DNA of 32,000 nt from Candidatus Omnitrophota bacterium (GTDB lineage Bacteria; Omnitrophota; Gorgyraeia; Zapsychrales; JANLHA01): the NCBI GenBank assembly GCA_963662715.1, contig OY759724.1, positions 2,340,001-2,372,000 on the forward strand. Direction: 5' to 3'. This document shows positions 4,689 to 30,997 of the stretch, in pieces. The position numbers and the translations under genes were made by a program. The notes under the pieces were generated by a model. It had not been told where the DNA came from. It was given only the letters and a program-made list of their open reading frames with translations, and did not search any database. The stretch's first letter is position 1; every line of letters starts with the position of its first letter.

Positions 4689-4693
4689 GAAAC

Positions 4694-11317: not shown

Positions 11318-12856
11318 ATGAACGTCTACCATTTGCTCAAAGAAAAGGCTGACACTTACAGCGGGAAACCGGCTTTAATTTTTAAGGATCAGGAAATATC
11401 ATTTTCAGATTTAAGGGGACAGGTCATCCGCCTGGCATCCGGCTTAAAGAAGTTAGGCGTCGGGAAATCAGATAAAGTGGCTGTCTTTCTTCCGAATTGT
11501 CCCGAATATGTTGTCTGTTACCTGGCCTGTTTTCACCTCGGAGCCGTCGTCGTTCCTCTGGATTATATGCTAAAGGACGATGAGCTGGTCTCCTGCTTAT
11601 CTCATTCGGAAACAAAAGCGCTGTTCGCTATGCCGAAAACAGACATTTCTTTGCCGGATATCAAGTCAAAAGTCCCTTCTTTACAGCATGTCATTCTTTT
11701 TCCGGGCCAAACAGAGGCGGGAGACCGGGAGGTTCTTTGGCCGAATTTATTGGAAGGGGGGGGGGATGATTTGCCGGAGGTTCTCATCGAGGATTCGGAC
11801 CCCGCCCTTATCATGTACACATCCGGCACCACGGGGCGGCCTAAAGGGATTTTACTTAATTATAAACATTTGGAAGGCTCTCCTAAAGCCATGGAATTTT
11901 TTGTCGATTTAAACGACAGGGATATCAAGCTGGCGGCCATTCCTTTCAGCCATATCGGCGGATTCATTTATATACAGAATTCTCTTATCTTCGGAATAAC
12001 ACTTGTTATTATGGACCGTTTTAATCCCTATGAGTTCTTGAGAAATATTCAGCGTTACAAGGTCACATGTTTTCACATTGTCCCGGCCATGTATACAGCC
12101 TTGTTGACATTGAAACAAATAGATAAATTCGATCTGTCCTCTTTGCGGTGGGTCGTTGTTTTCGGGGCGCCCAGCACCCCGGAGATTATGGCGCGTTTCC
12201 AGAAATACTGCCCGAATGCAAAATTGTTGAATGGCTGGGGCATGACGGAAACATGTCCGCCGAACACCGTGACGCCTCTGGGGAGCAGCAATATTGCCAG
12301 TGTGGGGAAACCCTCGCCCGTTTCTGAAATGAAATTGATCGATGATGACGGGCAGGACGTCCCCTGCGGCCAGATCGGTGAGATTGTCATTCGCGGCTGG
12401 GTTGTTATGGACGAGTATTATAAAGACCCGGACCTGACGGCCCAGACGAAAAAGAACGGCTGGCTTTATACCGGGGATCTCGGCCGTTTTGACGAAGAGG
12501 GATATTTATATATCGTTGGCCGTAAGAAAGAAATGATAAAAGTCGGAGGACAGATTGTTTACGCTCCGGAAGTGGAAGCCGCTTTTCATAAGCATGAAGC
12601 TGTCGAGGAGACCGCGGTTATCGGTGTTTCGGATGCTTTAAGGGGCGAAGCGGTGAAAGCTTTTGTCGTATTGAAGGAGGGAATGGATATTTCGATCGAA
12701 GACCTCAGATATTTTGCCCGCCAGCATTTGGCTCATTTTAAAGTGCCTTCCGAAATTGAACTGAAGGATGTCCTGCCAAAAAACCGGATTGGAAAAATTG
12801 ATAAGGAAACATTAAGGAAAAATCACGCCGGAAGTGCGGCGCAAGATGGAAGATGA
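11318..12856 (+). CDS. AMP-dependent synthetase/ligase (acyl-CoA or acyl-ACP ligase, ANL superfamily)
   Basis: The AMP-binding motif YTSGTTGRPKG is at nt 11816-11848. Also present are GWGMTE, YTGDLGRFDEEGYLYIVGRKKEMIK and the C-terminal PKNRIGKI lysine motif. An AAGGTGAT RBS lies upstream. Confidence 0.9.
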   Translation: MNVYHLLKEKADTYSGKPALIFKDQEISFSDLRGQVIRLASGLKKLGVGKSDKVAVFLPNCPEYVVCYLACFHLGAVVVPLDYMLKDDELVSCLSHSETKALFAMPKTDISLPDIKSKVPSLQHVILFPGQTEAGDREVLWPNLLEGGGDDLPEVLIEDSDPALIMYTSGTTGRPKGILLNYKHLEGSPKAMEFFVDLNDRDIKLAAIPFSHIGGFIYIQNSLIFGITLVIMDRFNPYEFLRNIQRYKVTCFHIVPAMYTALLTLKQIDKFDLSSLRWVVVFGAPSTPEIMARFQKYCPNAKLLNGWGMTETCPPNTVTPLGSSNIASVGKPSPVSEMKLIDDDGQDVPCGQIGEIVIRGWVVMDEYYKDPDLTAQTKKNGWLYTGDLGRFDEEGYLYIVGRKKEMIKVGGQIVYAPEVEAAFHKHEAVEETAVIGVSDALRGEAVKAFVVLKEGMDISIEDLRYFARQHLAHFKVPSEIELKDVLPKNRIGKIDKETLRKNHAGSAAQDGR

Positions 12857-12916: not shown

Positions 12917-13666
12917 ATGCAGACGATGGTTAAAGAAGTCCATATGACAGGTGAAGACCTGATGGAGATGGTTCAGCTGCGCCCGGAAGACATCGGGTCT
13001 TTTGCCATTGTCCCGGGCCCCAGGGAACGCATGGACGCCTTGGTGAAGAAACTGGAGAATCCTATCAAGAATTTTTCTTTTATGGAATATACCATGTTCA
13101 CGGGGGAATACCAGGGGACGAGGGTTACGACAATCAACGGGGGCCGTTTCTCCGCTGATACAGCCATCACCACGGAAATCCTCTGCAATGCCCGGGCCAA
13201 AACCATGATCCGTATCGGAAGCTGCGGGGCGTTGAGGGAAGATATTAAAATCGGCGATTTGGTTGTGGCCGAAAGCGCTGTCCGGGGGGACGGTGTTACT
13301 CCGTATTATGTCGATCATGGTTTTGAAACAAAGGCTGATTCGGCGTTGACTCAGCAAATCACAGCCGCGGCAGAACAGTCCGGGCTAACGGTCCGCAAAG
13401 GGGCCGTCTGGTCGACCGATGCTATTTTAAGAGAAACCAAAGAGCACGTCGGCAAAGCCGTTGAGCAGGGCGCGATAGCCGTGGATATGGTGACGTCGGT
13501 TTTCCTGACTTTGTGCCAGCTTTATAATGTCCCGGCTGCGGTCATCTTGGCGGTGAGCGATAATGTCATAACCGGGGAGATGGGATTTATGAATCCTGAT
13601 TATTATATGGCTGAAGGAGCGATGATCGGCATCGCTTTGAATCTGGTTAAGAACGCAAAAAAATAA
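12917..13666 (+). CDS. nucleoside phosphorylase, PNP/UDP family 1 (hexameric DeoD/Udp-like); candidate 5'-deoxyadenosine/MTA phosphorylase
   Basis: The sequence resembles the NP-I family (GGRFSADTAITTEIL, IRIGSCGAL, GDLVVAESAVR.DG). The substrate assignment rests only on operon context with MtnA-like and aldolase genes. Confidence 0.75.
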   Translation: MQTMVKEVHMTGEDLMEMVQLRPEDIGSFAIVPGPRERMDALVKKLENPIKNFSFMEYTMFTGEYQGTRVTTINGGRFSADTAITTEILCNARAKTMIRIGSCGALREDIKIGDLVVAESAVRGDGVTPYYVDHGFETKADSALTQQITAAAEQSGLTVRKGAVWSTDAILRETKEHVGKAVEQGAIAVDMVTSVFLTLCQLYNVPAAVILAVSDNVITGEMGFMNPDYYMAEGAMIGIALNLVKNAKK

Positions 13667-13670
13667 TCCT

Positions 13671-14639
13671 ATGACAGAAACCCCTTTATTCTGGCCGGCA
13701 AAAATGAAAGGGCGCGTCCTGAATGTCCTGGACGAAACCCTTATCCCGAAAAAGACTGTCTATATTAAAGTCCGGAATACGGCTCAGGCCGTTAAGGTGA
13801 TCCGTTCCATGAAAACCAGGGCTTTCGGACAGTTTCTTGTGGTATTAAATACATTTTTGCTGGAAATCCAGGCGGCAGACAAGGCCTCTGACAGGGTTTT
13901 CATGCAGAAAATGAACAAAACAGCCCAGGCGCTTAATGCCAGCCGCCCGACGTTCCCTTTTTCCGAAGTGACGGGCATCGTCGTGCACTGGGCTGAAGAA
14001 GCGCTAAGGCACCATGAAGATCCCCGCAAAATTGTCAAAAGAAATATTCATGGATATTTGCAGGGGATCAGGCAGCAGCGTCTGGACCGGGTGGCCAGGT
14101 TGGCGAAGTTAATGAAGAACGGAGACAGCATCCTGACACATTGCAATGTCTCGGGGGAACTGGCCATGGCCGCGGCTCTTTGCAGGAAACAAGGGAAAAA
14201 AATCCAGATTTTTGCTACCGAGACCCGTCCGTATCTGCAGGGGGCCAAGTTGACGTGCTGGGAATTGAAGCGGGTCGGCATTGATGTGACATTGATCGCC
14301 GATAATGCTGTGGCATCTGTGATGGCCGACTCTTTGGTGAACAAGGTGATCGTCGGATCGGACAGGAATTGTGCCAACGGCGATTTCGCGAACAAGATCG
14401 GCACCTATCAAATCGCCGTTTGTGCCCAAGAATTCAATATCCCTTTTTATGTCCTCACGCAGCCTTCCCGGGCCGTTAAGTCAGGCCGGGATATCCCGAT
14501 TGAAATACGGGACGAGAAAGAACTGCTTTGTTATGAAGGGAAGCGTTTTGTCCCGAGAGGGGCCAAAGGTTTTTATCCGGGATTCGATGTGGTTCCTTAT
14601 CAATATGTCACAAAAACGGTAGCGATCAATGTCAAATAA
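13671..14639 (+). CDS. eIF-2B alpha/beta/delta-family sugar-phosphate isomerase (MtnA-like 5-(methylthio/deoxy)ribose-1-phosphate isomerase)
   Basis: The product has ILTHCNVSG (the catalytic Cys context of MtnA) and VIVGSDRNCANGDFANKIGTYQIAVCAQEFNIPFYVL (the catalytic Asp context plus the NKIGT motif). It starts 4 nt after the upstream gene. Confidence 0.75.
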   Translation: MTETPLFWPAKMKGRVLNVLDETLIPKKTVYIKVRNTAQAVKVIRSMKTRAFGQFLVVLNTFLLEIQAADKASDRVFMQKMNKTAQALNASRPTFPFSEVTGIVVHWAEEALRHHEDPRKIVKRNIHGYLQGIRQQRLDRVARLAKLMKNGDSILTHCNVSGELAMAAALCRKQGKKIQIFATETRPYLQGAKLTCWELKRVGIDVTLIADNAVASVMADSLVNKVIVGSDRNCANGDFANKIGTYQIAVCAQEFNIPFYVLTQPSRAVKSGRDIPIEIRDEKELLCYEGKRFVPRGAKGFYPGFDVVPYQYVTKTVAINVK

Positions 14640-15114
14640 GAAACCGCTAAAGCACATTCTGGTTCACGGACAGGCGGCCCCGGCCGTTATGGACATTTTA
14701 AAGAAAAAGAGACAGAAGACTGTTGTCATCCCCGAGGGGCGCCCTCAGCTCGAGGCGGCGAAGGTCAACAGCCGTGAGTTGTTGAAACGGAACATGACTC
14801 CGCTTGTCATCGCGGACAATATGGCCGGTTTTATGTTTTATCGAAATATGATCAAAGAAGTCTGGCTGGCTTATCAGATCGGAGACGCGCACGGGGCGCT
14901 TTGTGATATCGGGGCCTTGATATATGCGGTCCTGGCCAAGAAACACCGAGTCCCGGTTCTGGCTTATCCCGCGGTCGAACAGAAAAGATTTATTGGAAAA
15001 CCCAAAGAGATCTGTTGCTTCTGCGGCCGGCGCGTGGCGCCTCCGGCTGTCAAGGGATATGTCCCTCTTCTGGAGTGGGTCCCGGGAAACTATATAGGAA
15101 AAATACATGAATAA
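14629..15114 (+). CDS. short eIF-2B/MtnA-like Rossmann-domain protein (half-size paralog)
   Basis: The 161-aa product resembles only the C-terminal nucleotide-fold half of MtnA/eIF2B (VVIPEGRPQLEAAKV..EL, TPLVIADNMAGFMF, VLAKKHRVPVLAYP). It overlaps the upstream stop by 11 nt and the downstream start by 8 nt, which indicates translational coupling. Confidence 0.55.
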   Translation: MSNKKPLKHILVHGQAAPAVMDILKKKRQKTVVIPEGRPQLEAAKVNSRELLKRNMTPLVIADNMAGFMFYRNMIKEVWLAYQIGDAHGALCDIGALIYAVLAKKHRVPVLAYPAVEQKRFIGKPKEICCFCGRRVAPPAVKGYVPLLEWVPGNYIGKIHE

Positions 15115-16135
15115 TGAACTTAAAGAGACAATCAAGAAAAATATGATCGCCGTCGGCCGGCTGCTTTGGGAGAAAGAATTGGCGACGGGCCTGAACGGGA
15201 ATATGAGTGTTAAGGTTGACGATCAGCATATCCTTCTGACGGGCAGTAAAACTTGCCTGGGGCTGCTGCACGATCAGGACATCCTGTTGATGAATTTGGA
15301 CGGACAGGTGATTGATGAGGGCATGATTTCCACGGAAGCGCTGCTGCATACGGATATTTATAAGAATGTCCCTTCCGTGAAATCCGTTCTGCATACGCAC
15401 ACGACGTTTGCAAACGCATATTTCTCGGAGCTGGATGTCCTGTCTCCGAGAAATTTTGAATCCAAACTGTATCTGGGAGAAGTCAGGTCTATTCCTCAGG
15501 ATACGCCGTCAGTGACGGATACCGCTCCGGTTCTCTCGGCCCTTAAAGAGAATAACGTCCTTGTCTTGAAAAATCATGGCATTGTTGCCGCCGGTGAAGA
15601 CCTTTTCGATTGTTTTCTTCTTGTCCAATGCCTTGAGGAGGCAGTGAAGGTGGAGTGTTTCAGCCGGTTGTTTAAGCCAAAGGCCCCTTTGAACAACACC
15701 GGTCTTTCTGCCGGATCAAAAAAAACGGAAGAACCCGGGGCGGCTGCTCCGGGGAAAAAATATAAATTGTTTTCTCAGGAGCAAATCGACCAGATCGTTC
15801 AGGTTGTCAACGCTGACAAACAGCTGAAAGATATGGGGGAAAAGACTCAGATGACCATGGAACTGGCCGTTAAATTGAACGAAACCGACCGGGTGTACAG
15901 TTTTCAGTTTGAAAACGGCCGGATTGTTCGGGTCGGCCATAATACGGACGCGGAATTTTTAATTTCGGCTTCGGCCAAAGTCTGGCTCGCCGTATTCAAC
16001 CGCCAAATAGATCCTTTTGTGGCAACAACGCAGAAAAAGATGCACCTGAAGGGCGATTATGCCCGGATTTCGAAATGGTATGCTCCCTGTAGCCGGATTT
16101 TCGAATTATGGCAGCAAGTTCCGGTTGAAGGATGA
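15107..16135 (+). CDS. class II aldolase/adducin-domain protein fused to a C-terminal SCP2-like domain
   Basis: The N-terminal ~190 aa carry class II aldolase motifs (GLNGNMSVK, LLTGSKT, STEALLHTDIY, SVLHTHTTFA zinc histidines, LKNHGIVAAGEDL). A Gly/Ala/Pro/Lys linker follows. The C-terminal ~120 aa look like an SCP2 sterol-carrier fold (AEFLISASAKVWLAVFNRQIDPFVATTQKKMHLKGD). Confidence 0.7.
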   Translation: MNNELKETIKKNMIAVGRLLWEKELATGLNGNMSVKVDDQHILLTGSKTCLGLLHDQDILLMNLDGQVIDEGMISTEALLHTDIYKNVPSVKSVLHTHTTFANAYFSELDVLSPRNFESKLYLGEVRSIPQDTPSVTDTAPVLSALKENNVLVLKNHGIVAAGEDLFDCFLLVQCLEEAVKVECFSRLFKPKAPLNNTGLSAGSKKTEEPGAAAPGKKYKLFSQEQIDQIVQVVNADKQLKDMGEKTQMTMELAVKLNETDRVYSFQFENGRIVRVGHNTDAEFLISASAKVWLAVFNRQIDPFVATTQKKMHLKGDYARISKWYAPCSRIFELWQQVPVEG

Positions 16136-16145
16136 GATTTGAGCT

Positions 16146-17633
16146 ATGGACAGATATGATTTATTCATTAACGGGACGTTAAGGCCGGCACAGGAAGACC
16201 GGTATTTTGAGGCCATGAACCCTTCCGCCGGAGAAGCGTTCGCACAGGTGGCAGATGCCTCCTGCGGGGACATGGCTGAAGCGATTGACGCCGCACGGCA
16301 GTGTTTTTTATCCATGGCCTGGGCCGGACTGACGATCAGGGAAAGAGGTCAGTTTTTATCGCGTGTCGCACAGCTCATCCGGGATAATGCCAAACTTTTG
16401 GCCGAATTGGAAAGTTCCGATACCGGCAAAACGATTAAGCAGACGACATTTATTGACGTCCCCACGTGTGCGGACACTTTTGAATATTTTGCCGGAGTGA
16501 GTGATCAGTTGAAAGGAACGATCAACCCTGTCCCGGCCCCTGTACGCAGCCTGACCGATAGAGAGCCTGTGGGTGTCGTCGCCGCCATTATCCCCTGGAA
16601 CTATCCTCTTATCATGTTCGCCTGGAAGGTGGCGCCTGCTTTGATCGCCGGGAATTCCGTTATTTTTAAGCCGTCCCGCCAGGCAAGCGTTTCCATTTCA
16701 AAACTCGCCCAAATTATCCGGCAGGCCGGCCTGCCGGACGGGGCGCTTAATGTTGTCACAAGCAGCCGGCATGAGGTGGTTCAGAAACTCATTGAAAGCC
16801 CGGAAGTTCATATGATCAGTTTTACCGGGGGGACGGAAACGGGCCGCGATGTCATGCGCCGCGCCGCACAGACGACAAAAAAATTAAATTTGGAACTCGG
16901 GGGGAAATCTCCCAACATCGTGTTCGCGGATTGTGATATCGACGCCGCTGTCGGGGGGACGCTGTCAGCCATTTTTATGAATCAGGGACAGATGTGTACC
17001 GCCGGATCCCGGTTGCTTTTGGAGGATGATATTTATGACGATTTTTTAAAAAGACTGGTTCAGAAGGTGCAGCAGTTTAAGATCGGCCATAGTATCAATT
17101 ACGATACGGATTTTGGCCCTCTTATTAGCGCGCAGCACCGGGAGCAGGTTTTGTCCTACGTCCGAAAAGGGGTAAACGAAGGCGCTACGCTTCTTTGCGG
17201 CGGCAAGATACCGGAAGATCTCCCTTCGGATATAGCGAAAGGATATTATTTGGAGCCTACGATCTTCACGGACGTTACTCCTGAGATGACGATTGCCCGG
17301 GAAGAAATATTCGGCCCGGTTCTGTCGGTCATGAGATTCTCCTCTCCGGAAGAAGCTCTGGAGCTCGCGAATGATACTCCTTACGGTCTGGCTGCCTGTG
17401 TTTGGACCAGGAGCATGGATAAAGCTCAGCAGGTTTCCAAACAGCTGCAGTGCGGAATCGTGTGGGTTAACACCTACGGCGGTTTTTACAACGAGGCTTC
17501 CTTCGGCGGTTACAAACAGAGCGGGTTTGGCCGTTCCCTGGGAACCGAGGGCCTTTTGGAATATACGCAGTCAAAACATATCTGTATTGACGCGACACCT
17601 GGAGGGCGTTCTCTTGTCTCGAGCTGGTTTTGA
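16146..17633 (+). CDS. NAD(P)+-dependent aldehyde dehydrogenase (non-acylating ALDH superfamily)
   Basis: Present are the ELGGKSP glutamate motif, the FMNQGQMCTAGSR catalytic cysteine motif, PWNYPL and EEIFGPV. The product is 495 aa. Confidence 0.92.
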   Translation: MDRYDLFINGTLRPAQEDRYFEAMNPSAGEAFAQVADASCGDMAEAIDAARQCFLSMAWAGLTIRERGQFLSRVAQLIRDNAKLLAELESSDTGKTIKQTTFIDVPTCADTFEYFAGVSDQLKGTINPVPAPVRSLTDREPVGVVAAIIPWNYPLIMFAWKVAPALIAGNSVIFKPSRQASVSISKLAQIIRQAGLPDGALNVVTSSRHEVVQKLIESPEVHMISFTGGTETGRDVMRRAAQTTKKLNLELGGKSPNIVFADCDIDAAVGGTLSAIFMNQGQMCTAGSRLLLEDDIYDDFLKRLVQKVQQFKIGHSINYDTDFGPLISAQHREQVLSYVRKGVNEGATLLCGGKIPEDLPSDIAKGYYLEPTIFTDVTPEMTIAREEIFGPVLSVMRFSSPEEALELANDTPYGLAACVWTRSMDKAQQVSKQLQCGIVWVNTYGGFYNEASFGGYKQSGFGRSLGTEGLLEYTQSKHICIDATPGGRSLVSSWF

Positions 17634-17770: not shown

Positions 17771-19243
17771 ATGAAAGTTTTATTTGTTACGCCTCCGATG
17801 GGTTCCTGGGCTACCCACGGAGACCATAAAGCTCCTAATCAGTATTATGCCCAGGTTGCGGCCTATCTGCGGGACAAAGCCGTGGCCGATGTCCAGGTCC
17901 TGGATGCTAAGGCGTTGGATCTTTCTTATGATCAGATGATGGCTGAAATTGCGAAGAGCCAGCCCCGTTTATGTGTCTTTGGGGACCTGCTGCATTCTAC
18001 CGGAGGATTGTCTGTCATCTGGCATTTCCTGGAAACAGCCAGAAGAATTAAGGACATCCTGCCTGAGACCAAAATCCTTATGGGCGGTCTTTGGTTTTCC
18101 GCCTATGCCACCGAAACGCTGGAACAGAACCCCTGGGTGGACTTCATTGCCATGGGAGAGGGTGAGCTCACAATCACAGACCTGATCCTGGCATTGGAAA
18201 ACCAGAAGACGGACCTGTCGGATATCCCCGGCCTGGTCTCGCGGACGGCGGACGGAAAGATCGAGATGGGGCCGCACCGGGACTTGATCCCCAGCCTGGA
18301 TGATTTGCCGATGCCGGCGTATGACCTTTTCCCGATGGAAAAATATGTCGGCCACACATACTGGAAACCGTTTGCCGAACTCCTGACTTCCCGCGGCTGC
18401 CCCGGGGCATGCACCTTTTGTTATCAGTGGAGTCTCTACGATAAGCGCAACAGTCAAAAGGATTATATTTCCTGGCGGGGAAAATCCCATAGCCGGATTT
18501 TAGACGAGTTGGATTATCTTGAAAAAGAATACGGCGTCAAGGTTGTCGTCATACAGGATGATGCTTTTAACGTAGACAAGGATAATGTGCGGCGTTTTTG
18601 TGAGTCGAAAATTGAGCGGGGCAACAGAATTCAATGGGTTTGTTTAGGCCGCGCCGATGACTGGTTGGCCCACAAGGATATTTTACCCCTGATGAACAAA
18701 GCGGGTTTGTTTATGGGGCTGGTGGGCGTTGAAGTTGAGAGTGACGAGCAGCTGGCCAAACAGGGCAAGGGCGTAACGCTGCAGCAGATCAAGGATACTG
18801 TGCAGGCGTTGCGGGCGGCGAACATCGCCAGCGTCGGGACGGTGTTAATCGGGTTAGAGGATGATGATGAAGCGACCATCAAGGAAAGATTCCGGGTTGC
18901 CGATGATATTGATCCCGATATCATGGCTTTGGATTACGTGACGCCTGTGCCGGGTTCTTTATTGTGGAATAATGCGATTAAAAAAGGCTGGCTGACCCCC
19001 CGGGATATTCAGCTGCGGGAATGGGATTTTCATCACCCGGTTATCCCAACTCAATATCTTTCTGTTGCTGATGTCGGCCGGCTGGGGGCCTGGTGTATGC
19101 GCGAGTTTTATTCAAAGCCGGAGCGCATTCACCGGATTATGGACAGTGATTATGACATGCTTGTTAAATTGTGTGTGAAAGATTTTATGAGCAATATCGC
19201 CAAATTTGAAAAAGCTTCCGTTGGTGAAGGCACATATGTTTAA
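17771..19243 (+). CDS. B12-binding-domain radical SAM enzyme (class B rSAM)
   Basis: The N-terminal ~140 aa look like a cobalamin-binding Rossmann-like region. The CxxxCxxC cluster motif (SRGCPGACTFCY) is at nt 18398-18421. The overall 490-aa architecture is typical of class B rSAM proteins. Confidence 0.85.
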   Translation: MKVLFVTPPMGSWATHGDHKAPNQYYAQVAAYLRDKAVADVQVLDAKALDLSYDQMMAEIAKSQPRLCVFGDLLHSTGGLSVIWHFLETARRIKDILPETKILMGGLWFSAYATETLEQNPWVDFIAMGEGELTITDLILALENQKTDLSDIPGLVSRTADGKIEMGPHRDLIPSLDDLPMPAYDLFPMEKYVGHTYWKPFAELLTSRGCPGACTFCYQWSLYDKRNSQKDYISWRGKSHSRILDELDYLEKEYGVKVVVIQDDAFNVDKDNVRRFCESKIERGNRIQWVCLGRADDWLAHKDILPLMNKAGLFMGLVGVEVESDEQLAKQGKGVTLQQIKDTVQALRAANIASVGTVLIGLEDDDEATIKERFRVADDIDPDIMALDYVTPVPGSLLWNNAIKKGWLTPRDIQLREWDFHHPVIPTQYLSVADVGRLGAWCMREFYSKPERIHRIMDSDYDMLVKLCVKDFMSNIAKFEKASVGEGTYV

Positions 19244-19296
19244 TTTTAAAATGGCCCGGCGTTAGAATCCGTGGTCTGAGGACAGGACGGTGATCT

Positions 19297-19596
19297 ATGG
19301 TTGATGAACAGCTCCAGATGGAATGGGAGAAAAGTGCGTTAACAAAATATAAAAATATGATTCAAAGGATCCCCTTGTTTCACCGGGAAATTGCGGATCA
19401 GGTCGTTACGAAAAAAGCGACGCAGAATGCTCAGAAAAGAGGCTCGGAGATTGTTGAGGAATGTGATATCCTCAGGGCTTTTTTTTCGGAAGTTCCCATG
19501 ACATTTTACGGGCTTATGATCCGGCTCTTTGAAGAGGTTGGCTTTGATTATAATAAATATGATCCCAGCCATAATGGAAAGACGGAGACAACCTAG
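19297..19596 (+). CDS. small protein resembling the PCP_red domain (C-terminal domain of protochlorophyllide reductase subunit B)
   Basis: The segment MEWEKSALTKYKNMIQRIPLFHREIADQVVTKKATQNAQKRGSEIVE fits the W..A...L..IP.F.R.......E..A...G pattern of PF08369 as I recall it. This assignment needs an HMM check. Confidence 0.45.
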   Translation: MVDEQLQMEWEKSALTKYKNMIQRIPLFHREIADQVVTKKATQNAQKRGSEIVEECDILRAFFSEVPMTFYGLMIRLFEEVGFDYNKYDPSHNGKTETT

Positions 19597-19706
19597 CCTA
19601 GGGAGAAGTTCCCTGCTTCTGGAAGTTTTGTCCCCGGTGACGTAGCGTGAACCGTTTCCCCGCGTAGCGGCAGCATGTTATTCAGCAAAAAAATGAGGAA
19701 AGAGCC

Positions 19707-20177
19707 GTGGCCCAAAAATCAGAATTGCGAGTGAGTCATCATTTTGTTTTTATCGAAGTCCCCATCGGCCTTGTGACTTCGGAATCTTTATTGTGGGGAG
19801 AGGCCTCGTGGTGGCCGAAGCCTTGTCCTTGGCATACGCAGAAGCTGACAGAAGGGGACATTGCTATCGGGACGCAATATCATCATTCTCTAGGCGGAGG
19901 CCTGGCTCCGCGCTGGGTTTCGGAAATAACCCAGTATGAGCCGAGACGGGAAATCGAACGCACATTTAAAGGGGATTTCTTTGTCGGGTATGAAGTCATT
20001 CAGGTGGGGGAGAGAGCGAACGGGACACGGATTGATTATGAAATGCATTATCAGGTCAAAGGTTTGTATAAAAAGATATTGTGGGAAATCTATTACAGAA
20101 AGAAATATGAAGCTAAGCTTGAAATGATCCTGGCAACATTAAAAGAGTATGTCGTGAAGCAGTATTATAAGGATTAA
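19707..20177 (+). CDS. SRPBCC (START/Bet v1-like) superfamily protein
   Basis: The ORF has a GTG start with a GAGGAA RBS upstream. The size (156 aa) and the alternating beta-strand pattern with a long C-terminal helix are typical of SRPBCC proteins. The family call is tentative. Confidence 0.5.
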   Translation: MAQKSELRVSHHFVFIEVPIGLVTSESLLWGEASWWPKPCPWHTQKLTEGDIAIGTQYHHSLGGGLAPRWVSEITQYEPRREIERTFKGDFFVGYEVIQVGERANGTRIDYEMHYQVKGLYKKILWEIYYRKKYEAKLEMILATLKEYVVKQYYKD

Positions 20178-20200
20178 CCTTGTCTTCGGGAGAAAGTCAG

Positions 20201-21232
20201 ATGAAAATTGCTGTTATTGGAGCAGGGGCGATTGGTTCGGTTGTTGCGGGCTTCTTGACCAAAGCCGGGGCAGACGTTCTTTTGGTGGGGCGCCCGGAAC
20301 AGGTCTCGGCCATTCAAGAAAACGGCTTATGTATCAGAAAGCCTGACGGGGATGAAGCCGTCGGTGTCCGCGTCGCGGACAAACTGGACCGGACGTATGA
20401 TTTGGTTATTTTTACCGTGAAAAGCCAGGATATGGAGCAGGCTTATCAAGATAACGCGGATTTTCTGGAAGATAGCCTGGTGCTAACAACACAGAACGGG
20501 ATCCAGGGAGATAATCTTCTCAGCACTCATTTTGCTCCGGAAAGGATGTACAGCAGTATCGTCATGTTCGGGGCGACATACACTGTCCCGGGGGAGGTTG
20601 TCCTCAATTTCCCGGGGGATTGGATTATCGGAAAACCTTACACTGTCAATGATGCTAAGATCGAAGAAATAGCGTATGTTCTAAAGAGAGCTTTTCCTGT
20701 TGAGATATCGACAAATATTATGGGGATGAAGTGGCTGAAGCTTTTCGTGAATTTTAATAATTGTATCCCGGCGTGCATTGGTCAGCCCATGCAGGAAGCT
20801 TTTTCGGATATCGACTTGTGTAAGCTGAGTGTCCTGTTGTTGCGGGAGGGTCTTGATATCATCAACGCCGCCGGAATAGAATTGGTTTCGTTGCCGAATT
20901 TTCCTGTTGAGAGAATCCTGGGGCTTGCCCGTATGCCTGTCAACGAAGCGGCGGGTATCCTTCAGAAAACATTGACCGGTTTGAGCAAAGAGCCTGTTTA
21001 TGGCTCGATATTACAGAGTATTAAACGGGGCAAACCCAGTGAAATTGATTTTATTAACGGGGAAATCGACCAGGTGGCAGCCAGTATCCGAAGGAAGGCG
21101 CCTTTAAACAGGAAAATAGTCCGGTTCGTTCATCAGGTGGAGGGGACGGGGCAATTTTTTACCCCGGAAGAAATCAAGTCGGAATTCCCATTAACGGAAG
21201 GTCTTCTTGAAGAAACAGGGCAAGGCCGGTGA
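20201..21232 (+). CDS. ketopantoate reductase (ApbA/PanE) family NAD(P)H-dependent 2-oxoacid/ketone reductase
   Basis: MKIAVIGAGAIGSVVAGFL is the Rossmann motif. GMKWLKLFVNFNN and SILQSIKRGKPSEIDFINGEI correspond to the PanE signatures K..K...N and S.LQD...G..TEID.ING. The ATG at 20201 has a GGGAGAA RBS, whereas the ORF track starts at a TTG at 20180. Confidence 0.8.
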   Translation: MKIAVIGAGAIGSVVAGFLTKAGADVLLVGRPEQVSAIQENGLCIRKPDGDEAVGVRVADKLDRTYDLVIFTVKSQDMEQAYQDNADFLEDSLVLTTQNGIQGDNLLSTHFAPERMYSSIVMFGATYTVPGEVVLNFPGDWIIGKPYTVNDAKIEEIAYVLKRAFPVEISTNIMGMKWLKLFVNFNNCIPACIGQPMQEAFSDIDLCKLSVLLLREGLDIINAAGIELVSLPNFPVERILGLARMPVNEAAGILQKTLTGLSKEPVYGSILQSIKRGKPSEIDFINGEIDQVAASIRRKAPLNRKIVRFVHQVEGTGQFFTPEEIKSEFPLTEGLLEETGQGR

Positions 21233-22610: not shown

Positions 22611-23843
22611 ATGGACAGAATAGCAATTACAGGTGTGGGGGTCGTTTCCCCGAGCGGTATCGACAAACGGAAATTTTGGTCTAATGTCAAAAAAGGCCGT
22701 TCAGCCGTCAAGGTGATCGATAGATTTGATGCCTCACGGTATCCTTCTCATCTCGCCGGGCAAGTTCATGAGCTGGATGCCTACAGCAAGGTGTCTTCCC
22801 GGCTGCTGAAAAAAATCGATTTGTTCGCCCATATGGCGCTGGTCGCTTCCGAACTGGCCATAGAAGACGCTGGCATCGATATGCAGAGCGAAAATTTAAA
22901 GCGGGCGGGAATTTTTATGGGCAATGCGATCGGAGGATGGCTTTATGCGGAAACGGAGTTGCGGGATCTTTACCTGGAAGGACGGGAGGGGGTAAGCCCT
23001 TTTATGGCCTCCGCGTGGTTCCCTGCGGCTCCGCAAGGACAGATATCGATTCATTACGGTATAAAAGGCTATAGCAAAACCATCGTTGCCGACCGGGCGA
23101 GTTCTTTGATGGCCATCGGGTACGGGGCAAAAAATCTTAAGAAAGGCCACAATGATTTTATCCTCGCCGGAGGGATGGAAGCCCCGGTGACGCCTTATGC
23201 TTTGTTGTGCTGCAACACCTCAGGTATGCTTACGAAGAACAACAAAGCCGCCGACACAGCCTATAAGCCTTTTGATAAAAACCGGGACGGGTTTGCCATC
23301 GCTGAGGGGGCAGGGTGCCTTATCCTGGAACCTTTGGAAAGAGTCCGGGGCCGGCAGACATCTGTCCTGGGCTTTGTGGCGGGCTTTGGCACCACCACGG
23401 ACGGGGTAAGCCGCATTGATCCTGCCGATGACGGCCTGCAGTTATCCCGGGCTATCCGCCTGGCCCTGGAGGATGCGCAATGTGCCCCGGAAGACATTGA
23501 TTATATCTGTGCCGACGGGGACGGAACGGTTCTGGGGGACCGGACGGAAACCATGGCCATTAAACAGGTCTTTAACAGCCATGCCAAGAAAATCCCGGTC
23601 ACCGCTCCCAAATCAGTTTTCGGTAATATGCTTGGAGCTTCCGGGGCTGTTGATGTTATAACAACTCTTTTAGCCATGGAGTCCGGCATTGTCCCTCCGA
23701 CGATTAATTATCAAACTCCGGATCCGGAATGTGATCTGGATTATTGTCCCAACAAATGCCAGGCCAAAGAGATCAACAAGGCTTTGGTGCTCAATCGCGG
23801 CCGCGGCGGGATTAACGTGGCGTTGGTCTTGGCCAAGAAATAA
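22611..23843 (+). CDS. beta-ketoacyl synthase-like partner subunit lacking the catalytic triad (KS-beta / chain-length-factor-like)
   Basis: The product aligns without gaps to the upstream KS around the active site. The Cys position is Arg162 (IVADRASSLMAIG, codon at nt 23094-23096). The first His is replaced by Asp (ICADGDGT) and the second by Asn (KSVFGNMLGASGA). Confidence 0.85.
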   Translation: MDRIAITGVGVVSPSGIDKRKFWSNVKKGRSAVKVIDRFDASRYPSHLAGQVHELDAYSKVSSRLLKKIDLFAHMALVASELAIEDAGIDMQSENLKRAGIFMGNAIGGWLYAETELRDLYLEGREGVSPFMASAWFPAAPQGQISIHYGIKGYSKTIVADRASSLMAIGYGAKNLKKGHNDFILAGGMEAPVTPYALLCCNTSGMLTKNNKAADTAYKPFDKNRDGFAIAEGAGCLILEPLERVRGRQTSVLGFVAGFGTTTDGVSRIDPADDGLQLSRAIRLALEDAQCAPEDIDYICADGDGTVLGDRTETMAIKQVFNSHAKKIPVTAPKSVFGNMLGASGAVDVITTLLAMESGIVPPTINYQTPDPECDLDYCPNKCQAKEINKALVLNRGRGGINVALVLAKK

Positions 23844-23906: not shown

Positions 23907-24146
23907 GTGTGTGTTGAGGCAAAAGTGAAAGAAGTATTCCAGAAGGTGCTGGATGTCAGCCCTGACGAGATTAAGCCGGATGAGAGCCTGGCGGCCTCTT
24001 TGGGGGTGGATTCCACGGAGTTGGTCGAGATATCCGTCGGGATAAAAAAAGAACTGAATGTCCCTTTGGGCGACGGAGAGCTTAAAAAAACATTCACGTT
24101 TAATGAAATCGTTGAGATTGTGAAGTCAAAGGCTCCGGCGGACTGA
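23907..24146 (+). CDS. acyl carrier protein
   Basis: The 79-aa product has the LGVDSTELVE phosphopantetheine-attachment motif (Ser36 codon at nt 24012-24014). It has a GTG start with a GGAGG RBS 7 nt upstream. Confidence 0.85.
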   Translation: MCVEAKVKEVFQKVLDVSPDEIKPDESLAASLGVDSTELVEISVGIKKELNVPLGDGELKKTFTFNEIVEIVKSKAPAD

Positions 24147-24213: not shown

Positions 24214-25068
24214 ATGCCCGGCAGAAATGCCGAAGGAGAAAGGCGACGGATTGGAATTATGCAGATCATTGATCTTAGTCTTCCCATAGACGACACCTTG
24301 CAGGAGACCCATGCCGCCAAGATCGACCGCATCAGCCATGCGGACGGTGTTGAGCATTTCAACTGGGTGGTTATGAAGAACCGTCCCGGCGGACAGGAAA
24401 AGTTTGAACAGGGGGAAAGAGTTGCTGCTGCCGGGGAAATCCCTGATGGGGAAATGCTGTCTTTGGAAATAGTCCATGCCTCTGTTCATATGGGGTCGCA
24501 TGTGGACGCCCCGTTTCATTACGGCAGCTGTTGTGAAGGCCGGCCGGCCCGGACCATTGAAGATGTCCCTCTGGAATGGTGTTACGGAGACGGGGTGATC
24601 TTGGATTTCACTCATATGCATTATCCGGATGCTATCCACCGAACCGATATCGAGCAGGCTTTAAAGAAGCTGTCTTATAAGCTTAAGCCCATGGACATCG
24701 TTCTTATTTATACCGGTGGGGATGCCCTCCTGGGGACTCCGGATTATGTGAATAAGTATGTCGGCATGATGCCTGACGCTGTCGAGTTTATTCTGGACCA
24801 GGGCGTCAAAATGCTGGGCATTGACACCATTGGGCTTGACCGCCCGTGTTTTGAAATGTTTCAGGAATTTTTGACGACAAAAGACAAATCAAAACTTTGG
24901 CCGTCGCATTTCCTCGGCCGCCGGAGGGAATTTTGTCATATGGAGCGGCTTGGCAATCTGGGGGCTGTTCCCCGTTCTTTTGGCTTTAAAGTGGCGTGTT
25001 TCCCGGTGCGGGTTAAAAATGCCGGAGCCGGATGGGCCAGAGTCGTTGCGATGCTGGAGGATCGCTAG
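24214..25068 (+). CDS. cyclase-family protein (PF04199 putative cyclase / kynurenine-formamidase-like metallohydrolase fold)
   Basis: The HMGSHVDAPFH motif at nt 24487-24519 matches the family signature HxGTHxDxPxH. The start could instead be the ATG at 24259 (MQIIDLSLPI), which resembles the usual family N-terminus. Confidence 0.8.
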   Translation: MPGRNAEGERRRIGIMQIIDLSLPIDDTLQETHAAKIDRISHADGVEHFNWVVMKNRPGGQEKFEQGERVAAAGEIPDGEMLSLEIVHASVHMGSHVDAPFHYGSCCEGRPARTIEDVPLEWCYGDGVILDFTHMHYPDAIHRTDIEQALKKLSYKLKPMDIVLIYTGGDALLGTPDYVNKYVGMMPDAVEFILDQGVKMLGIDTIGLDRPCFEMFQEFLTTKDKSKLWPSHFLGRRREFCHMERLGNLGAVPRSFGFKVACFPVRVKNAGAGWARVVAMLEDR

Positions 25069-25241: not shown

Positions 25242-25700
25242 ATGGGACATACACGGAATTCGATATTGATTAATGCGCCCTATGATCTTGTTTATGACAC
25301 TTCCAATGATATTGAAAGATGGACCGAACTGTTTGGAGACGAATATATTAAAGCAGAGGTGTTGGAGCGAAGCGGTCTTGAGATAACATTCCGTCTTACC
25401 GATGATGAAAATAAATCATGGGTTTCCAAACGATGGCTTCATAAAGAGCAGTTTTTTGCCTTTGCATCCCGCCACGAACCGATGTTCCCTTTTAAGTATA
25501 TGAAAATCATTTGGTTGTATCATGTTACGGCAGAAGGGACTCTTATGACCTGGATTCAGGATTTTGAAATGGACCCGGGGTTCACCGCGTATTCGGAAGA
25601 GCAGATAGAAGGGTTTATTAATAAGCATTCCAAGGATAACATGAAGATTTTTAAGGATGTTATTGAAAAGGAAGCTGAGCAATTGGCCTCTCAATCATAA
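25242..25700 (+). CDS. SRPBCC polyketide cyclase/dehydrase-like protein (ARO/CYC-like)
   Basis: The N-terminus HTRNSILINAPYDLVYDTSNDIERWTELF matches the typical Polyketide_cyc/cyc2 start (h.e.si.i.aP...vy....d.e.Wpe.f). The product is 152 aa, and a GGGGAGG RBS lies upstream. Confidence 0.65.
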   Translation: MGHTRNSILINAPYDLVYDTSNDIERWTELFGDEYIKAEVLERSGLEITFRLTDDENKSWVSKRWLHKEQFFAFASRHEPMFPFKYMKIIWLYHVTAEGTLMTWIQDFEMDPGFTAYSEEQIEGFINKHSKDNMKIFKDVIEKEAEQLASQS

Positions 25701-25807: not shown

Positions 25808-26962
25808 ATGTTTAATTTTGGGAGTCAGATAACTCGAGAAAAAAAAGTTAGCTATTTTTTGTTGTGTTGTGGATGTTTCACAATATCATTTAATGTTGCG
25901 GCAATTGTGGCGGCGATCCCGGCTATGAGTGTTGATCTGCGGATTCCAGGTATCCTGGTTTCGGATGTCATTCCTTATTATATGATTCCTTATGGTGTGG
26001 GCGCCCTGCTTTATGCCCCGTTGACTCGTTATTTCTCATATAAGCGCATCCTGGGTATTTCTTTGTTCTGTTATGCCCTGGCTTGTTTTTACTGCGCCAA
26101 CATACGGACCATACAGCATTTTTTGCTGGGACGTGTGATCATGGGGGTCTCCGGTGCGGGTGTTATTCCTTTGGGGTTGATGATAATTGGGCAGCTTTTT
26201 GAAAAGAACGTCCGGGGCCGTTTGGTGGGAATGTTTTTTAGCTTCAGTTTTCTGGCATCTATCTCGGGATTGATCTTGAGCGGAACCGTACACTGGAGAT
26301 GGCTTTTTTGGATTCCGTCTTTGATCGGAGTTGTCACGGCCCTGAGTATTTTATTTTTAAGTCTCGAGCCCTTTGCCCATATATGCCGGCTGAAAATTGA
26401 TTATATCAACACACTTAAGAAACCCTGTATAGGGCGGATTTTTGGTTTTATTGCTTTTATCAGTTTCTTGTTCCATGGGGTGCAGAAATGGTTTGGTGTG
26501 TATCTGGCGGAGAGCTATCACCTGAACCAGATGATGATCAGTTCTTTGTTGTTAATCCCGCCGGTGAGCGGGGCTCTGGGGCAAATGATGGGGGGGTATC
26601 TTTCAGATAAGAAAGGGCGTGCAGCCGCCTGTCTCATCGGACTGTTGATCTTGTCTTTATCAACGATGTCATTATACGGAAAGTATCCTTTGCTGATCGT
26701 CGGACTTATCTTGGGGCTTGTTAGTTTCGGGTGGACCATCGGGCATAATGGTATTTCAACTATCTTGACGGACTTTCCCGACACGCATCGTTCAGAGATC
26801 GCAAGCTTGAATTCCGCTCTCCGTTTTATCGGCGGCGGGGTGGGTTTTAAGATCAGTAAGTTTTTTATTAATAGGGGGATGAGTTTTGAAATGAACTTTT
26901 TGTTGCTGGGGGTCTGCATGCTGTTTTCCGGATTTTTTTTAAAGAAAATTATCCCGGATTGA
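25808..26962 (+). CDS. MFS transporter
   Basis: The 384-aa product is very hydrophobic with about 11-12 predicted TM segments. An MFS-like loop motif is present (GQLFEKNVRGRLVGMF, plus GGYLSDKKGR between TM segments). Confidence 0.8.
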   Translation: MFNFGSQITREKKVSYFLLCCGCFTISFNVAAIVAAIPAMSVDLRIPGILVSDVIPYYMIPYGVGALLYAPLTRYFSYKRILGISLFCYALACFYCANIRTIQHFLLGRVIMGVSGAGVIPLGLMIIGQLFEKNVRGRLVGMFFSFSFLASISGLILSGTVHWRWLFWIPSLIGVVTALSILFLSLEPFAHICRLKIDYINTLKKPCIGRIFGFIAFISFLFHGVQKWFGVYLAESYHLNQMMISSLLLIPPVSGALGQMMGGYLSDKKGRAAACLIGLLILSLSTMSLYGKYPLLIVGLILGLVSFGWTIGHNGISTILTDFPDTHRSEIASLNSALRFIGGGVGFKISKFFINRGMSFEMNFLLLGVCMLFSGFFLKKIIPD

Positions 26963-27043: not shown

Positions 27044-27814
27044 ATGAATTTAAAAGGGAAGAATGCTGTTATAACCGGCGCCAGTAAAGGCATCGGGAAG
27101 GCCATTGCCTTAAAACTCGCAGAACAAGGTGTCAACGTGATGATTGCGGCCAGGACGCAGGCGACTCTGGAGGAAGCTGCGGCGGAGATTGAGAAGAAAA
27201 CAGGCTCGCGGGTCATCGGTGTCCCGACGGATGTGAGTCGACTTGCCGATTTGCAAAACCTGGCTGACAAAGCCTTTCAGGAGTTCAAAACGGTCGATAT
27301 CCTCATTAATAATGCCGGAGTTTCCAGCCAGTATCCTTTTGATAAGCAGCCGCTGGAAGACATAGAGCGGCTGGCGCACACGAATTATTTGGGGTATGTC
27401 AGACTGATCCGCCTCATTATTCCTCATATGATTGAAAGAAAACAGGGCGCGATTATTAACATGGTGAGCGGATCGACATTATGTGACCCTTTGCCGAAGA
27501 ATTTTATTACATACAGTTCTTTAAAAGTCGGCTTGCGCGCTTTTTTGAAAGGGCTCTTTTGGGAGATGCGGGATCACGGGATTAAAATCACGTCTGTTTT
27601 GCCTGGTGTCGTCGATACGGAGCTGACCGGGAAGTTAAAGGACATTACCGAGCAGCAAAAAGAGCGGCTTATGTCTGCGGATTCCGTGGTGGATATGGTT
27701 ATGTTCGCGTTATCCGTGCCGCAGAACGCATGCCCGCTGGAATTGGCCGTTATTAACCAGCAAACTCCGTGGACAAAGCCTGTTATAGACTATGCCCAAC
27801 AGCAGGCGAAGTAG
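27044..27814 (+). CDS. SDR-family oxidoreductase (ketoreductase-like)
   Basis: Present are the TGASKGIGKAIA cofactor motif, NNAG, and the catalytic S...YSSLK (YxxxK) motif. The product is 256 aa. Confidence 0.88.
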   Translation: MNLKGKNAVITGASKGIGKAIALKLAEQGVNVMIAARTQATLEEAAAEIEKKTGSRVIGVPTDVSRLADLQNLADKAFQEFKTVDILINNAGVSSQYPFDKQPLEDIERLAHTNYLGYVRLIRLIIPHMIERKQGAIINMVSGSTLCDPLPKNFITYSSLKVGLRAFLKGLFWEMRDHGIKITSVLPGVVDTELTGKLKDITEQQKERLMSADSVVDMVMFALSVPQNACPLELAVINQQTPWTKPVIDYAQQQAK

Positions 27815-27901
27815 GTGACGGTTCTGTGGATGTGTTCATATCATGTGAAGAAAGGCTGTCTTGATATGAAATATTGCGTGATAAGAAGGGAGGTGACATG
27901 A

Positions 27902-28322: not shown

Positions 28323-29237
28323 ATGAGTAGAATTATTGATGCCCACAGCCACTATATGCCTCAGGCCATTGCTTCAAAGACGACATTTTTCCGCTCGAGC
28401 TGGTCGGATCTTGACTGGCAGCTGGCAACGATGAAACAATTTGGTATCGAGAAAGCCGTTTTGCTTTATCCGACGAGCGATGCACATCTTAACATGGGGG
28501 GGTGGAAAAATGTTTGTGAAATTTACAATGAAGAGATCAGCAAGGTCGTGAGGAAATACTCCCGGCGGCTTATTGGCGCGGGAATCCTTCCTTTAGACAG
28601 TCCCGAAGACATCATGAAAGAGCTGAGCCGTTTTAAGTCTTTGAAATTGTCCATGATATCATTGCCGTCCAGTTTTGAAGGGAAATATTTGGACGACGAC
28701 ATGTTTACCCCGGTCTTCGAATATGCCCAGAAAAACCGCATGCCGATCCACGTCCATCCCCAAATTATCAACCCTATCGGGGAGGACCGGGTGAAAGATC
28801 CGTTGCTGACGCCGGTTTTAGAATACGTTTTCGATGTCTCTATGAGCATCGGCAAATTAATGATGAATGAAAAGCTTTTGGCTTTCCCGGACGTTAAACT
28901 TATTTTTGCTCACTATGGCGGGGTGCTTCCTTTTGTTAAGGAGCGTTTTGACAATACGTATCTCATGCTTCGTAAAAGAGGGTTTGTTAAAGACTTGTTC
29001 AAGCTTCCCAGCGAGTATTTTAAGAACCTGTATTTTGACATTGCCGGTTCGAAATCGCCTTCGGCTTTTTTCTGTGCTCTGGAAGTTACGGACGCCTCGC
29101 ATATTTTATTCGGGTCGGATTTCCCGGCGAACCAGGATATTCTCGGCACGCTCAACATGATCAACCGGTCCCCTTTGAGCACGAATTTCAAAGACGCGAT
29201 CTTTTTTAAGAACGCTAAAGCCTTATTAGATATATAG
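28323..29237 (+). CDS. amidohydrolase_2 (PF04909, ACMSD/aromatic-acid-decarboxylase-like) family metal-dependent hydrolase/decarboxylase
   Basis: The metal-binding start IIDAHSHYMP is present, along with later HVHP, FAHYGG and LFGSDFP motifs typical of the amidohydrolase_2 TIM-barrel family. Confidence 0.75.
   Translation: MSRIIDAHSHYMPQAIASKTTFFRSSWSDLDWQLATMKQFGIEKAVLLYPTSDAHLNMGGWKNVCEIYNEEISKVVRKYSRRLIGAGILPLDSPEDIMKELSRFKSLKLSMISLPSSFEGKYLDDDMFTPVFEYAQKNRMPIHVHPQIINPIGEDRVKDPLLTPVLEYVFDVSMSIGKLMMNEKLLAFPDVKLIFAHYGGVLPFVKERFDNTYLMLRKRGFVKDLFKLPSEYFKNLYFDIAGSKSPSAFFCALEVTDASHILFGSDFPANQDILGTLNMINRSPLSTNFKDAIFFKNAKALLDI

Positions 29238-29404: not shown

Positions 29405-30997
<1,593 letters not shown>

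Follow-up and report, generated by a model that had tools for sequence, protein, structure and literature searches.

The 32,000-nucleotide window analysed here (contig OY759724.1, positions 2,340,001 to 2,372,000, of the Candidatus Omnitrophota assembly GCA_963662715.1) encodes a ketosynthase (KS) and, directly downstream of it, a KS-like partner protein in which an arginine, R162, stands where a ketosynthase has its nucleophilic cysteine. The partner is best understood as the chain length factor (CLF, or KS-β) of a minimal aromatic type II polyketide synthase (PKS) belonging to a non-actinobacterial lineage, in which R162 would have a structural role and would carry no signal of unusual priming; we put the probability of this reading at about 0.75. 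The glutamine that appears to be ‘missing’ from the protein is in fact missing as a rule from the non-actinobacterial CLFs that were sampled, among which arginine is the commonest residue, and the result is mainly a correction of what a first-pass annotation, made from the letters of the sequence, had proposed.

The partner gene starts 38 nt past the stop codon of the KS gene, on the same strand, and has its own GGAG ribosome-binding site. BLASTP aligns the two products over their full length (33% identity, E = 6e-81), and the active-site region of the alignment is gapless (TISTGCTAGTDSVG versus TIVADRASSLMAIG). R162, encoded by CGG at 23094-23096, falls at the Cys position; the motif ICADGDGT, beginning at residue 299, places D302 at the first catalytic His, and FGNMLGA, beginning at residue 337, places N339 at the second, while K334 is conserved. 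The gapless alignment and the three substitutions described in the annotation are thus borne out by BLASTP, by the coordinates and by conservation among relatives, as is its statement that the partner has no CLF-type Gln: in a 227-sequence MAFFT alignment, Q161 of the actinorhodin (act) CLF and R162 of the partner share one column.

The annotation had named a shift of register as one way in which this assignment might fail. The nearest Gln and Cys residues are Q142/Q144 and C200/C201, with none within 17 residues of position 162, so that a small shift cannot restore either. An AlphaFold2 monomer model of the partner (pLDDT 92, pTM 0.93) has a strand at residues 156-159 and a helix from residue 161, and R162 is predicted to sit where the one passes into the other, at the ‘nucleophilic elbow’ that holds the Cys in KS enzymes, which share the thiolase fold. 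The alignment and the placement at the elbow together leave no credible register that returns Gln or Cys to the nucleophile position. The helix-loop-helix of the dimer interface (approximately residues 110-140) is modelled with low confidence, as is expected of a segment that becomes ordered only in the dimer. A decarboxylating ketosynthase of the KSQ type, with Gln at the Cys position and both His residues kept, was also considered and rejected, the partner having Arg, Asp and Asn at those positions.

The view that an Asp-Arg pair is not classical holds for the arginine and fails for the rest. In canonical CLFs (that of the act system and four from Streptomyces plasmids), the Cys site reads D-Q or E-Q, the first His is Asp and the second His is Arg; judged from these sequences, an acidic residue before the Cys position and the His-to-Asp change appear to be classical CLF traits, and only Gln-to-Arg and Arg-to-Asn set the partner apart. 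The act CLF (ActI-ORF2, PDB 1TQY chain B) further resembles the partner in its KASII fold (TM 0.93, 35% identity), in the position of its gene directly after that for KS-α and in an ‘RG(R)GG’ loop, for which the form in Streptomyces CLFs is ARG(R/H/I)GGF.

Outside this group, arginine prevails. The 24 sequence clusters of non-Gln CLFs comprise 18 with Arg, three with Lys, two with Ile and one with Ser, and most of the more distant relatives, at 39-64% identity, have Arg. The D-R pair is found in the CLFs of Clostridium beijerinckii (WP_077837155.1, KTTVADRASG), C. puniceum (WP_077846909.1, KTTVADRTSG) and Ktedonobacter racemifer (WP_007919165.1, FVSDRASG), as well as in those of Archangium violaceum and of deltaproteobacterial metagenome-assembled genomes (MAGs). 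Because it is common to Clostridium, Ktedonobacter, Archangium and deltaproteobacteria, arginine at this position appears, from the sequences sampled, to be the usual residue of non-actinobacterial CLFs and to mark a non-actinobacterial aromatic CLF lineage. The proposal that the pair points to a different priming mechanism is undercut by the presence of the same motif in CLFs of clostrubin producers, Ktedonobacter, myxobacteria and deltaproteobacteria. The annotation had itself allowed that the pair might prove common in characterised CLFs; this is so in part.

Relatives of the partner were sought in one genome per species of the GTDB database, and were found in 490 species-level genomes; the counts out of 80 loci given below refer to the best 80 of these 490. 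The 80 closest, at 70-85% identity, are all from Omnitrophota-type MAGs, some of which are labelled ‘uncultured Planctomycetales’, and homologues named Candidatus Omnitrophota or Omnitrophica are abundant at 74-86% identity. D161, R162, D302 and N339 are unchanged in the best 120 homologues. The same four positions read D-R-D-N in all 80 species loci, with Arg at both 396 and 398, and the arginine codons used at position 162 are CGG (22 loci), CGC (30), CGT (11), CGA (10), AGG (5) and AGA (2). Since all six arginine codons occur, the residue has been kept by selection rather than by recent common ancestry. The KS gene lies directly 5' of the partner gene in 17/17 full-length related loci.

As a separate observation, the PKS core (median identities of 79% for the KS, 75% for the CLF, 75% for the PF04199 cyclase, 73% for the SRPBCC cyclase and 73% for the short-chain dehydrogenase/reductase, SDR) is better conserved across the 80 Omnitrophota species than neighbours resembling primary-metabolism genes (aldehyde dehydrogenase 59%, ApbA 61%, radical-SAM enzyme 61%, MFS transporter 48%), which is odd for a secondary-metabolite cluster. 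A published catalogue of KS-CLF pairs (PMC10132072) already counts Candidatus Omnitrophica among the 14 phyla that have them, and a limited library of papers, searched for Omnitrophota polyketides, Q161 and the conserved glutamine, contained no explicit description of Arg-type CLFs.

The placement of the partner among known proteins was assessed in a neighbour-joining tree of 32 sequence clusters (Kimura distances, 200 bootstraps, rooted on B. subtilis FabF), from which the four signature columns had been removed. The partner proteins, the act CLF and one Streptomyces plasmid CLF form a single clade (200/200), and the KS-α proteins form a separate one (200/200). The phylogenetic check that the annotation had called for thus puts the partner in the KS-β clade together with Gln-type CLFs of Streptomyces, and the Gln-type pair is nested inside the Arg-type sequences (183/200). 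The fold alone cannot discriminate, because Foldseek matches the partner to every KASII-type structure at TM 0.91-0.97. NCBIfam has no CLF-specific model and returns for the partner only a sub-threshold FabF match (384 bits versus a cut-off of 494). By sequence, the best PDB matches are FabF (4e-93), then the act CLF (1tqy_B, 1e-72), with a weaker match to 9s5h_C (1.3e-59), probably an anammox protein; a ladderane-type FabF pair was considered and rejected.

The partner does have the features by which a KS-β may be recognised: it is a PF00109+PF02801 paralogue encoded directly 3' of an intact Cys-His-His KS-α, it has lost Cys, His and His, it groups with known CLFs apart from KS-α, and its cluster contains genes for an acyl carrier protein (ACP) and for aromatase/cyclases. 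It is not a canonical actinobacterial CLF, having Arg/Asp/Asn against the Gln/Asp/Arg of the act and four Streptomyces proteins. It agrees instead with a working definition, made for this analysis and not published, of an ‘ancestral’ non-actinobacterial aromatic CLF lineage that includes ClrB, the K. racemifer protein and their relatives: a basic residue, usually Arg, after an acidic one at the Cys position; a gate of the form W-x-x-(A/G)-x-x-x-L and Y-A; and a cluster core of KS, CLF, PF04199 cyclase and single-domain SRPBCC cyclase.

The surrounding genes (Table 1) bear directly on the kind of PKS. The KS-α is intact, with C169 (21817-21819), H309 (22237-22239), K341 and H346 (22348-22350), and its best PDB matches are the act KS (1tqy_A, 1.2e-114) and AntD (6smo_B, 2.8e-114). 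The ACP scores 9e-11 with NCBIfam ACP models, under their cut-offs, and PP-binding genes lie in the equivalent place in two related loci (L001 and L002); the PF04199 cyclase is 48% identical to the cyclase encoded beside the Clostridium CLF (locus L087). The ACP, the PF04199 and SRPBCC cyclases and the ketoreductase neighbours, taken with the neighbour-joining placement, identify an aromatic type II PKS and the open reading frame (ORF) as its CLF. The ACP, the two cyclases, the ketoreductase, the amidohydrolase-fold protein, which we guess from its Pfam family to be an aromatic-acid decarboxylase, and the MFS exporter would complete an aromatic polyketide pathway.

The annotation had also raised a distinct CLF lineage like that of the highly reducing PKSs. 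The partner is indeed distinct from the Streptomyces lineage; that it serves a highly reducing (polyene-type) system like those of Iga12 and ApeC, with an aliphatic product, is very improbable. Iga12 and ApeC are likewise non-Gln partners of a KS, and the cluster here does contain an SDR ketoreductase. Their clusters, however, combine a ketoreductase with a dehydratase and have no aromatic cyclases, whereas two aromatic-polyketide cyclases are encoded here and no dehydratase Pfam domain turned up in the scanned ORFs; the KS matches Iga11 (6kxd_A) at only 4e-65, against about 1e-114 for the act KS and AntD; the partner clusters with aromatic CLFs in the neighbour-joining tree; and it is full-length, whereas ApeC-type CLFs are half-size (PMC8358021). 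The cyclases, the lack of a dehydratase domain in the scanned ORFs and the weak Iga11 match led to rejection of that assignment.

Table 1. Features of the PKS cluster, with positions in the window.
Feature	Position	Strand	Remarks
FadD-like AMP-forming acyl ligase, candidate starter activator	11318..12856	+	Pfam AMP-binding; NCBIfam PRK06187, 463 bits versus cut-off 476
PNP_UDP_1 phosphorylase, MtnA-like IF-2B isomerase, short IF-2B paralogue, class II aldolase-SCP2 fusion, aldehyde dehydrogenase	12917..17633	+	
Truncated IF-2B/MtnA paralogue, 161 aa	14629-15114		C-terminal half of family model; overlaps stop of full-length gene by 11 nt
B12-binding radical-SAM enzyme (BchE/HpnJ-like), two small ORFs, ApbA/PanE-like reductase	17771..21232	+	Directly 5' of KS
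KS-α, catalytic ketosynthase, 419 aa	21313..22572	+	Pfam PF00109+PF02801
CLF/KS-β partner, catalytically dead, Arg-type	22611..23843	+	410 aa
Gate residues W110, A113, L117	22938..22961	+	Alignment columns of act CLF F109, T112, F116
D161-R162, codons GAC CGG	23091..23096	+	R162 at Cys/CLF-Gln position
Y196-A197	23196..23201	+	Alignment columns of act CLF W194-G195
D302	23514..23516	+	First catalytic His position; change common to canonical CLFs
N339	23625..23627	+	Second catalytic His position; Arg in canonical CLFs
R396-G397-R398 in ‘RGRGG’ motif	23796..23804	+	Replaces KS ‘GFSG/GFGG’ gate loop
ACP, 79 aa, GTG start	23907..24146	+	DS motif, Ser36 at 24012-24014
Polyketide cyclase, PF04199 ‘Cyclase’ family	24214..25068	+	Pfam 4.4e-29
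SRPBCC polyketide cyclase/aromatase, TcmN-like, single-domain	25242..25700	+	Pfam PF03364, PF10604
MFS efflux-type transporter	25808..26962	+	Pfam MFS_1; syntenic
SDR ketoreductase, 3-ketoacyl-ACP reductase-like	27044..27814	+	Pfam adh_short, KR; NCBIfam PRK07666, 9e-49
77-aa ORF, GTG start	27902-28135	+	77-aa PC4-like (PF02229) gene at that place in other loci
Amidohydrolase_2 protein	28323..29237	+	Pfam PF04909; homologues in L087 (Clostridium) and L004 (deltaproteobacterial)

In the mechanism that we favour, the partner would form a heterodimer with the KS-α, as homology suggests, and the KS-α, with its Cys-His-His triad and Lys, would carry out acyl transfer, decarboxylation of malonyl-ACP and Claisen condensation, while the partner, devoid of a triad, would build one half of the tunnel for the polyketide with W110, A113, L117, Y196 and A197. 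The role of R162 is most likely structural: buried, it would be joined to D302 by an ion pair or a network of hydrogen bonds and so occupy what remains of the active site. In KS enzymes the residues of the triad come together at a single site, which brings an Arg at 162 within reach of an Asp at 302. Canonical CLFs have the Asp too, their Arg coming from the second-His position instead. Covariation of the three positions is consistent with this arrangement. In most lineages a basic residue at 162 (Arg or Lys) is accompanied at 302 by Asp, Glu or His; where 162 is Ser, Ile or Leu, 302 is Asn or Ala; and the combination of Gln at 162 and Asp at 302 is found with Arg at 339. The pattern fits one buried Arg per buried Asp, and it is on this account that R162 is read as a structural plug.

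Several points weigh against this interpretation. Few independent lineages underlie the covariation, which is broken by some sequences (D-R-A-N, D-R-S-H and E-R-N-H at positions 161, 162, 302 and 339), and the R162-D302 contact is deduced solely from the convergence of triad positions in KS enzymes. CLFs of the Ktedonobacter type hold both His residues beside the Arg, so that some lineages may have residual function. The sample of homologues is biased by the Arg-type queries used to collect it; the tree is of the neighbour-joining type only and holds just two Gln-type sequences; and the C. beijerinckii protein (P0146) is equated with ClrB through species names and cluster architecture rather than an accession match.

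It is also conceivable, although quite improbable, that the partner is not inert and that R162, D161 and D302 form a new catalytic or substrate site, for instance for the malonyl carboxylate or the terminal carboxylate of the growing chain. R162 is absolutely conserved despite synonymous saturation, K334 is conserved, and the His-His pair persists beside Arg in the Ktedonobacter-type relatives. A buried salt bridge, however, would predict equal conservation, both His residues are gone from the Omnitrophota protein, and the replacement of R162 by Ser, Ile or Leu together with a neutral residue at 302, in several related lineages, speaks more for a structural than for a catalytic pair.

Decarboxylation of malonyl-ACP persists in the KS/CLF-like amxFabF heterodimer of anammox bacteria, although the partner there carries Val or Thr (bioRxiv 10.64898/2026.05.19.726425); by analogy, priming by the KS subunit is plausible in the Omnitrophota system. 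Octaketides are likewise made by AntDE, in which AntE has Asp in place of the Gln (PMC6638757). The alternative, that the Gln is absent because priming proceeds differently, with a non-acetate starter acid, perhaps derived from adjacent genes, activated by the AMP-forming acyl ligase (AMP-ligase) and passed to the ACP or the KS, is considered unlikely. The FadD-like AMP-ligase heads the syntenic cluster and lies directly 5' of the PNP_UDP_1 gene in 20 of about 22 evaluable Omnitrophota loci; KSIII or acyltransferase priming genes were not found among the scanned cluster ORFs; an adjacent set of genes encodes a route from nucleoside through sugar-1-phosphate, ketose-1-phosphate and aldehyde to acid; and this set is again linked to the PKS in a deltaproteobacterial relative, with AFOR in place of the aldehyde dehydrogenase. 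Against this stand the amxFabF system, in which non-Gln partners do not block decarboxylative priming by the KS subunit, and the lack of an AMP-ligase among the genes called in the Clostridium locus, where a KASIII occurs instead, and in an 8.2 kb Ktedonobacter-type contig. Moreover, AntG, the ligase of the ant cluster, has been proposed as an ACP loader and not as a source of a novel starter (PMC6638757), and removal of the 5'-deoxyadenosine made by the radical-SAM enzyme would explain the salvage-like genes equally well. Because the ligase is conserved at the head of the cluster in its own right, delivery of a starter by it forms a separate hypothesis, for which the CLF residue is no evidence.

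The genes upstream of the PKS core deserve attention in their own right. The phosphorylase, isomerase, aldolase and dehydrogenase genes look like the set for 5'-deoxyadenosine and methylthioadenosine known as the ‘DHAP shunt’. They may either supply a starter acid or dispose of 5'-deoxyadenosine released by the radical-SAM enzyme, and both roles fit; since D-R CLFs occur in Clostridium and Ktedonobacter-type loci without a ligase among the called genes, neither role depends on the CLF residue. The truncated IF-2B paralogue is kept in 50/80 loci (about 48% identity) and is therefore no recent pseudogene. The radical-SAM enzyme, the first small ORF (s99) and the ApbA-like reductase are each present in 17/17 full-length loci, against 6/17 for detection of the second small ORF (u156). 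The syntenic order runs from AMP-ligase, PNP_UDP_1, MtnA-like isomerase, short IF-2B, aldolase-SCP2, aldehyde dehydrogenase and radical-SAM enzyme to the small ORFs, ApbA-like reductase, KS, CLF, ACP, cyclase, SRPBCC, MFS, SDR, PC4-like ORF and Amidohydro_2. A deltaproteobacterial locus (L004), whose CLF is 58% identical to the partner, has the radical-SAM enzyme, phosphorylase, isomerase and aldolase with the PKS in a rearranged order, and AFOR replaces the dehydrogenase; recurrence of the linkage in rearranged form suggests that it is probably functional. To our knowledge, no described type II PKS cluster combines such a salvage set with an AMP-ligase and a B12 radical-SAM enzyme.

Among named systems, the cluster of the clostrubin producers shares its core with the Omnitrophota cluster and differs from it in the upstream genes. 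The CLFs of C. beijerinckii (P0146) and C. puniceum (P0374) have D-R at the Cys position, belong to the KS-β clade and come, like the partner, from an anaerobic host, and the Clostridium locus has the same core of KS, CLF, PF04199 cyclase, SRPBCC cyclase, Amidohydro_2 and ACP. The Clostridium CLF is, however, only 43% identical to the partner and has Glu/His where the partner has Asp/Asn at the His positions, and its locus contains KASIII, two phosphopantetheinyl transferases and hydrolases, without a radical-SAM enzyme, AMP-ligase or phosphorylase/isomerase/aldolase set. The K. racemifer CLF (P0377), a further D-R member of a non-actinobacterial aromatic KS-CLF pair, with a PF04199 cyclase nearby in a related contig (L006), is about 39% identical to the partner and keeps both catalytic His residues (D-R-H-H); the tailoring genes of the Ktedonobacter type are of oxygenase and methyltransferase kinds. 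Elsewhere among the sister CLF lineages, D-S-N-N is the state in sequences labelled Nitrospirota, one of which has D-C-N-N, with the Cys kept and the His residues gone. Proteins of 780-870 aa with two KS-like stretches, which may be natural KS-CLF fusions, occur among the closest representatives (P0125, P0136, P0213, P0217, P0222, P0246 and P0261); giant multi-KS proteins dominated that set of representatives, of which about 10 with a single domain were usable.

AntE, the CLF of the Photorhabdus anthraquinone synthase AntDE (PDB 6SMO/6SMP), is a characterised non-actinobacterial partner without the Gln, the Asp at that position being as reported in PMC6638757, and the ant cluster also has a CoA-ligase-like gene, AntG (PMC6638757); AntE proved too divergent to turn up in the 60 PDB sequence matches listed with three CLF queries or in the Foldseek top 50. 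The anammox amxFabF2/amxFabFmut pair shares with the present system a heterodimer of KS and dead paralogue, membership of the PVC superphylum, adjacent radical-SAM genes and a partner without Gln (Val/Thr), but it belongs to a fatty-acid-type (ladderane) cluster, its partner gene lies upstream of the KS gene and it has no aromatic cyclases. The amxFabF heterodimer is probably that of PDB 9S5H/9S5I, a link made by content only, no paper naming 9S5H having been found. A metagenomic survey reports ‘ladderane’ biosynthetic gene cluster calls in Omnitrophota (PMC9902471), and clusters such as this one, with a B12 radical-SAM enzyme and a KS, might trigger that label.

The residues that line the tunnel gate offer a hint of product size. 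Chain-length residues have been defined for the act CLF (F109, T112, F116, W194 and G195; PMC4383371), and the corresponding residues of the partner are W/A/L/Y/A. Of the 80 loci, 58 have WALYA at these five positions, 14 WGLYA, seven WALYG and one WGLFA; the Clostridium CLF, at W/G/L/Y/A, is thus matched exactly in 14/80. ClrB and ClrB_Cp have been placed in an ‘ancestral’ C20 CLF clade (PMC7693217). As the gate resembles that of the CLF of the C20 clostrubin system, a long chain of about C20, or roughly a decaketide, is weakly hinted at for the Omnitrophota PKS.

For annotation, the consequence is that rules and priming inferences drawn from Streptomyces CLFs are not transferable to non-actinobacterial ones, and the debate on whether decarboxylative priming needs the CLF Gln must accommodate whole aromatic-polyketide lineages that lack it. 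The wider cluster, in which an AMP-ligase, salvage-like genes, a B12 radical-SAM enzyme and a PKS core are syntenic, is more unusual than R162, and the main interest may lie in this conserved Omnitrophota cluster and in a possible ancestral Arg state of CLFs. The locus may matter more than the residue: it belongs to an uncultivated phylum, is tractable for heterologous expression and could reveal a small molecule made there. A broader joint proposal, which as a whole we regard as unlikely, is that Arg and not Gln was ancestral at the dead site, as part of a buried Asp-Arg pair, with the Gln of Streptomyces arising later, once the Arg had moved to the second-His position, and that what the Omnitrophota locus encodes is an anaerobic pathway to aromatic polyketides that has been widely kept. 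In that pathway the BchE-like B12 radical-SAM enzyme would replace oxygenase tailoring, the salvage set, aldehyde dehydrogenase and AMP-ligase would recycle the radical-SAM by-product or make a starter, and the product would be physiological (for example, redox-active) rather than a sporadic antibiotic.

A few minor features of the locus and its surroundings may be recorded. An antisense ORF of 130 aa (27836-28228, minus strand), which overlaps the 77-aa ORF, is probably spurious. In the Omnitrophota MAG GCA_020632535.1 (locus L001, 12501-14348), genes with thioredoxin/glutaredoxin and ParE-toxin Pfam domains lie between the cyclase and MFS genes, which suggests an insertion within the cluster. 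The alpha-glucan genes at 39-6235 of the window, encoding GH13 with CBM48 (branching/debranching-type), GH57 with DUF3536 and a GH77 4-alpha-glucanotransferase, appear unrelated to the PKS, and none of them was found in related loci. At the other end, an rRNA operon starts 168 nt past the last cluster gene, with 16S rRNA at 29405-30995, tRNA-Ile(GAT) at 31217-31293, tRNA-Ala(TGC) at 31306-31381 and the 5' end of 23S rRNA from 31696; the 16S match spans 1591 nt against a 1533-position model, and the gene may contain a small insertion.

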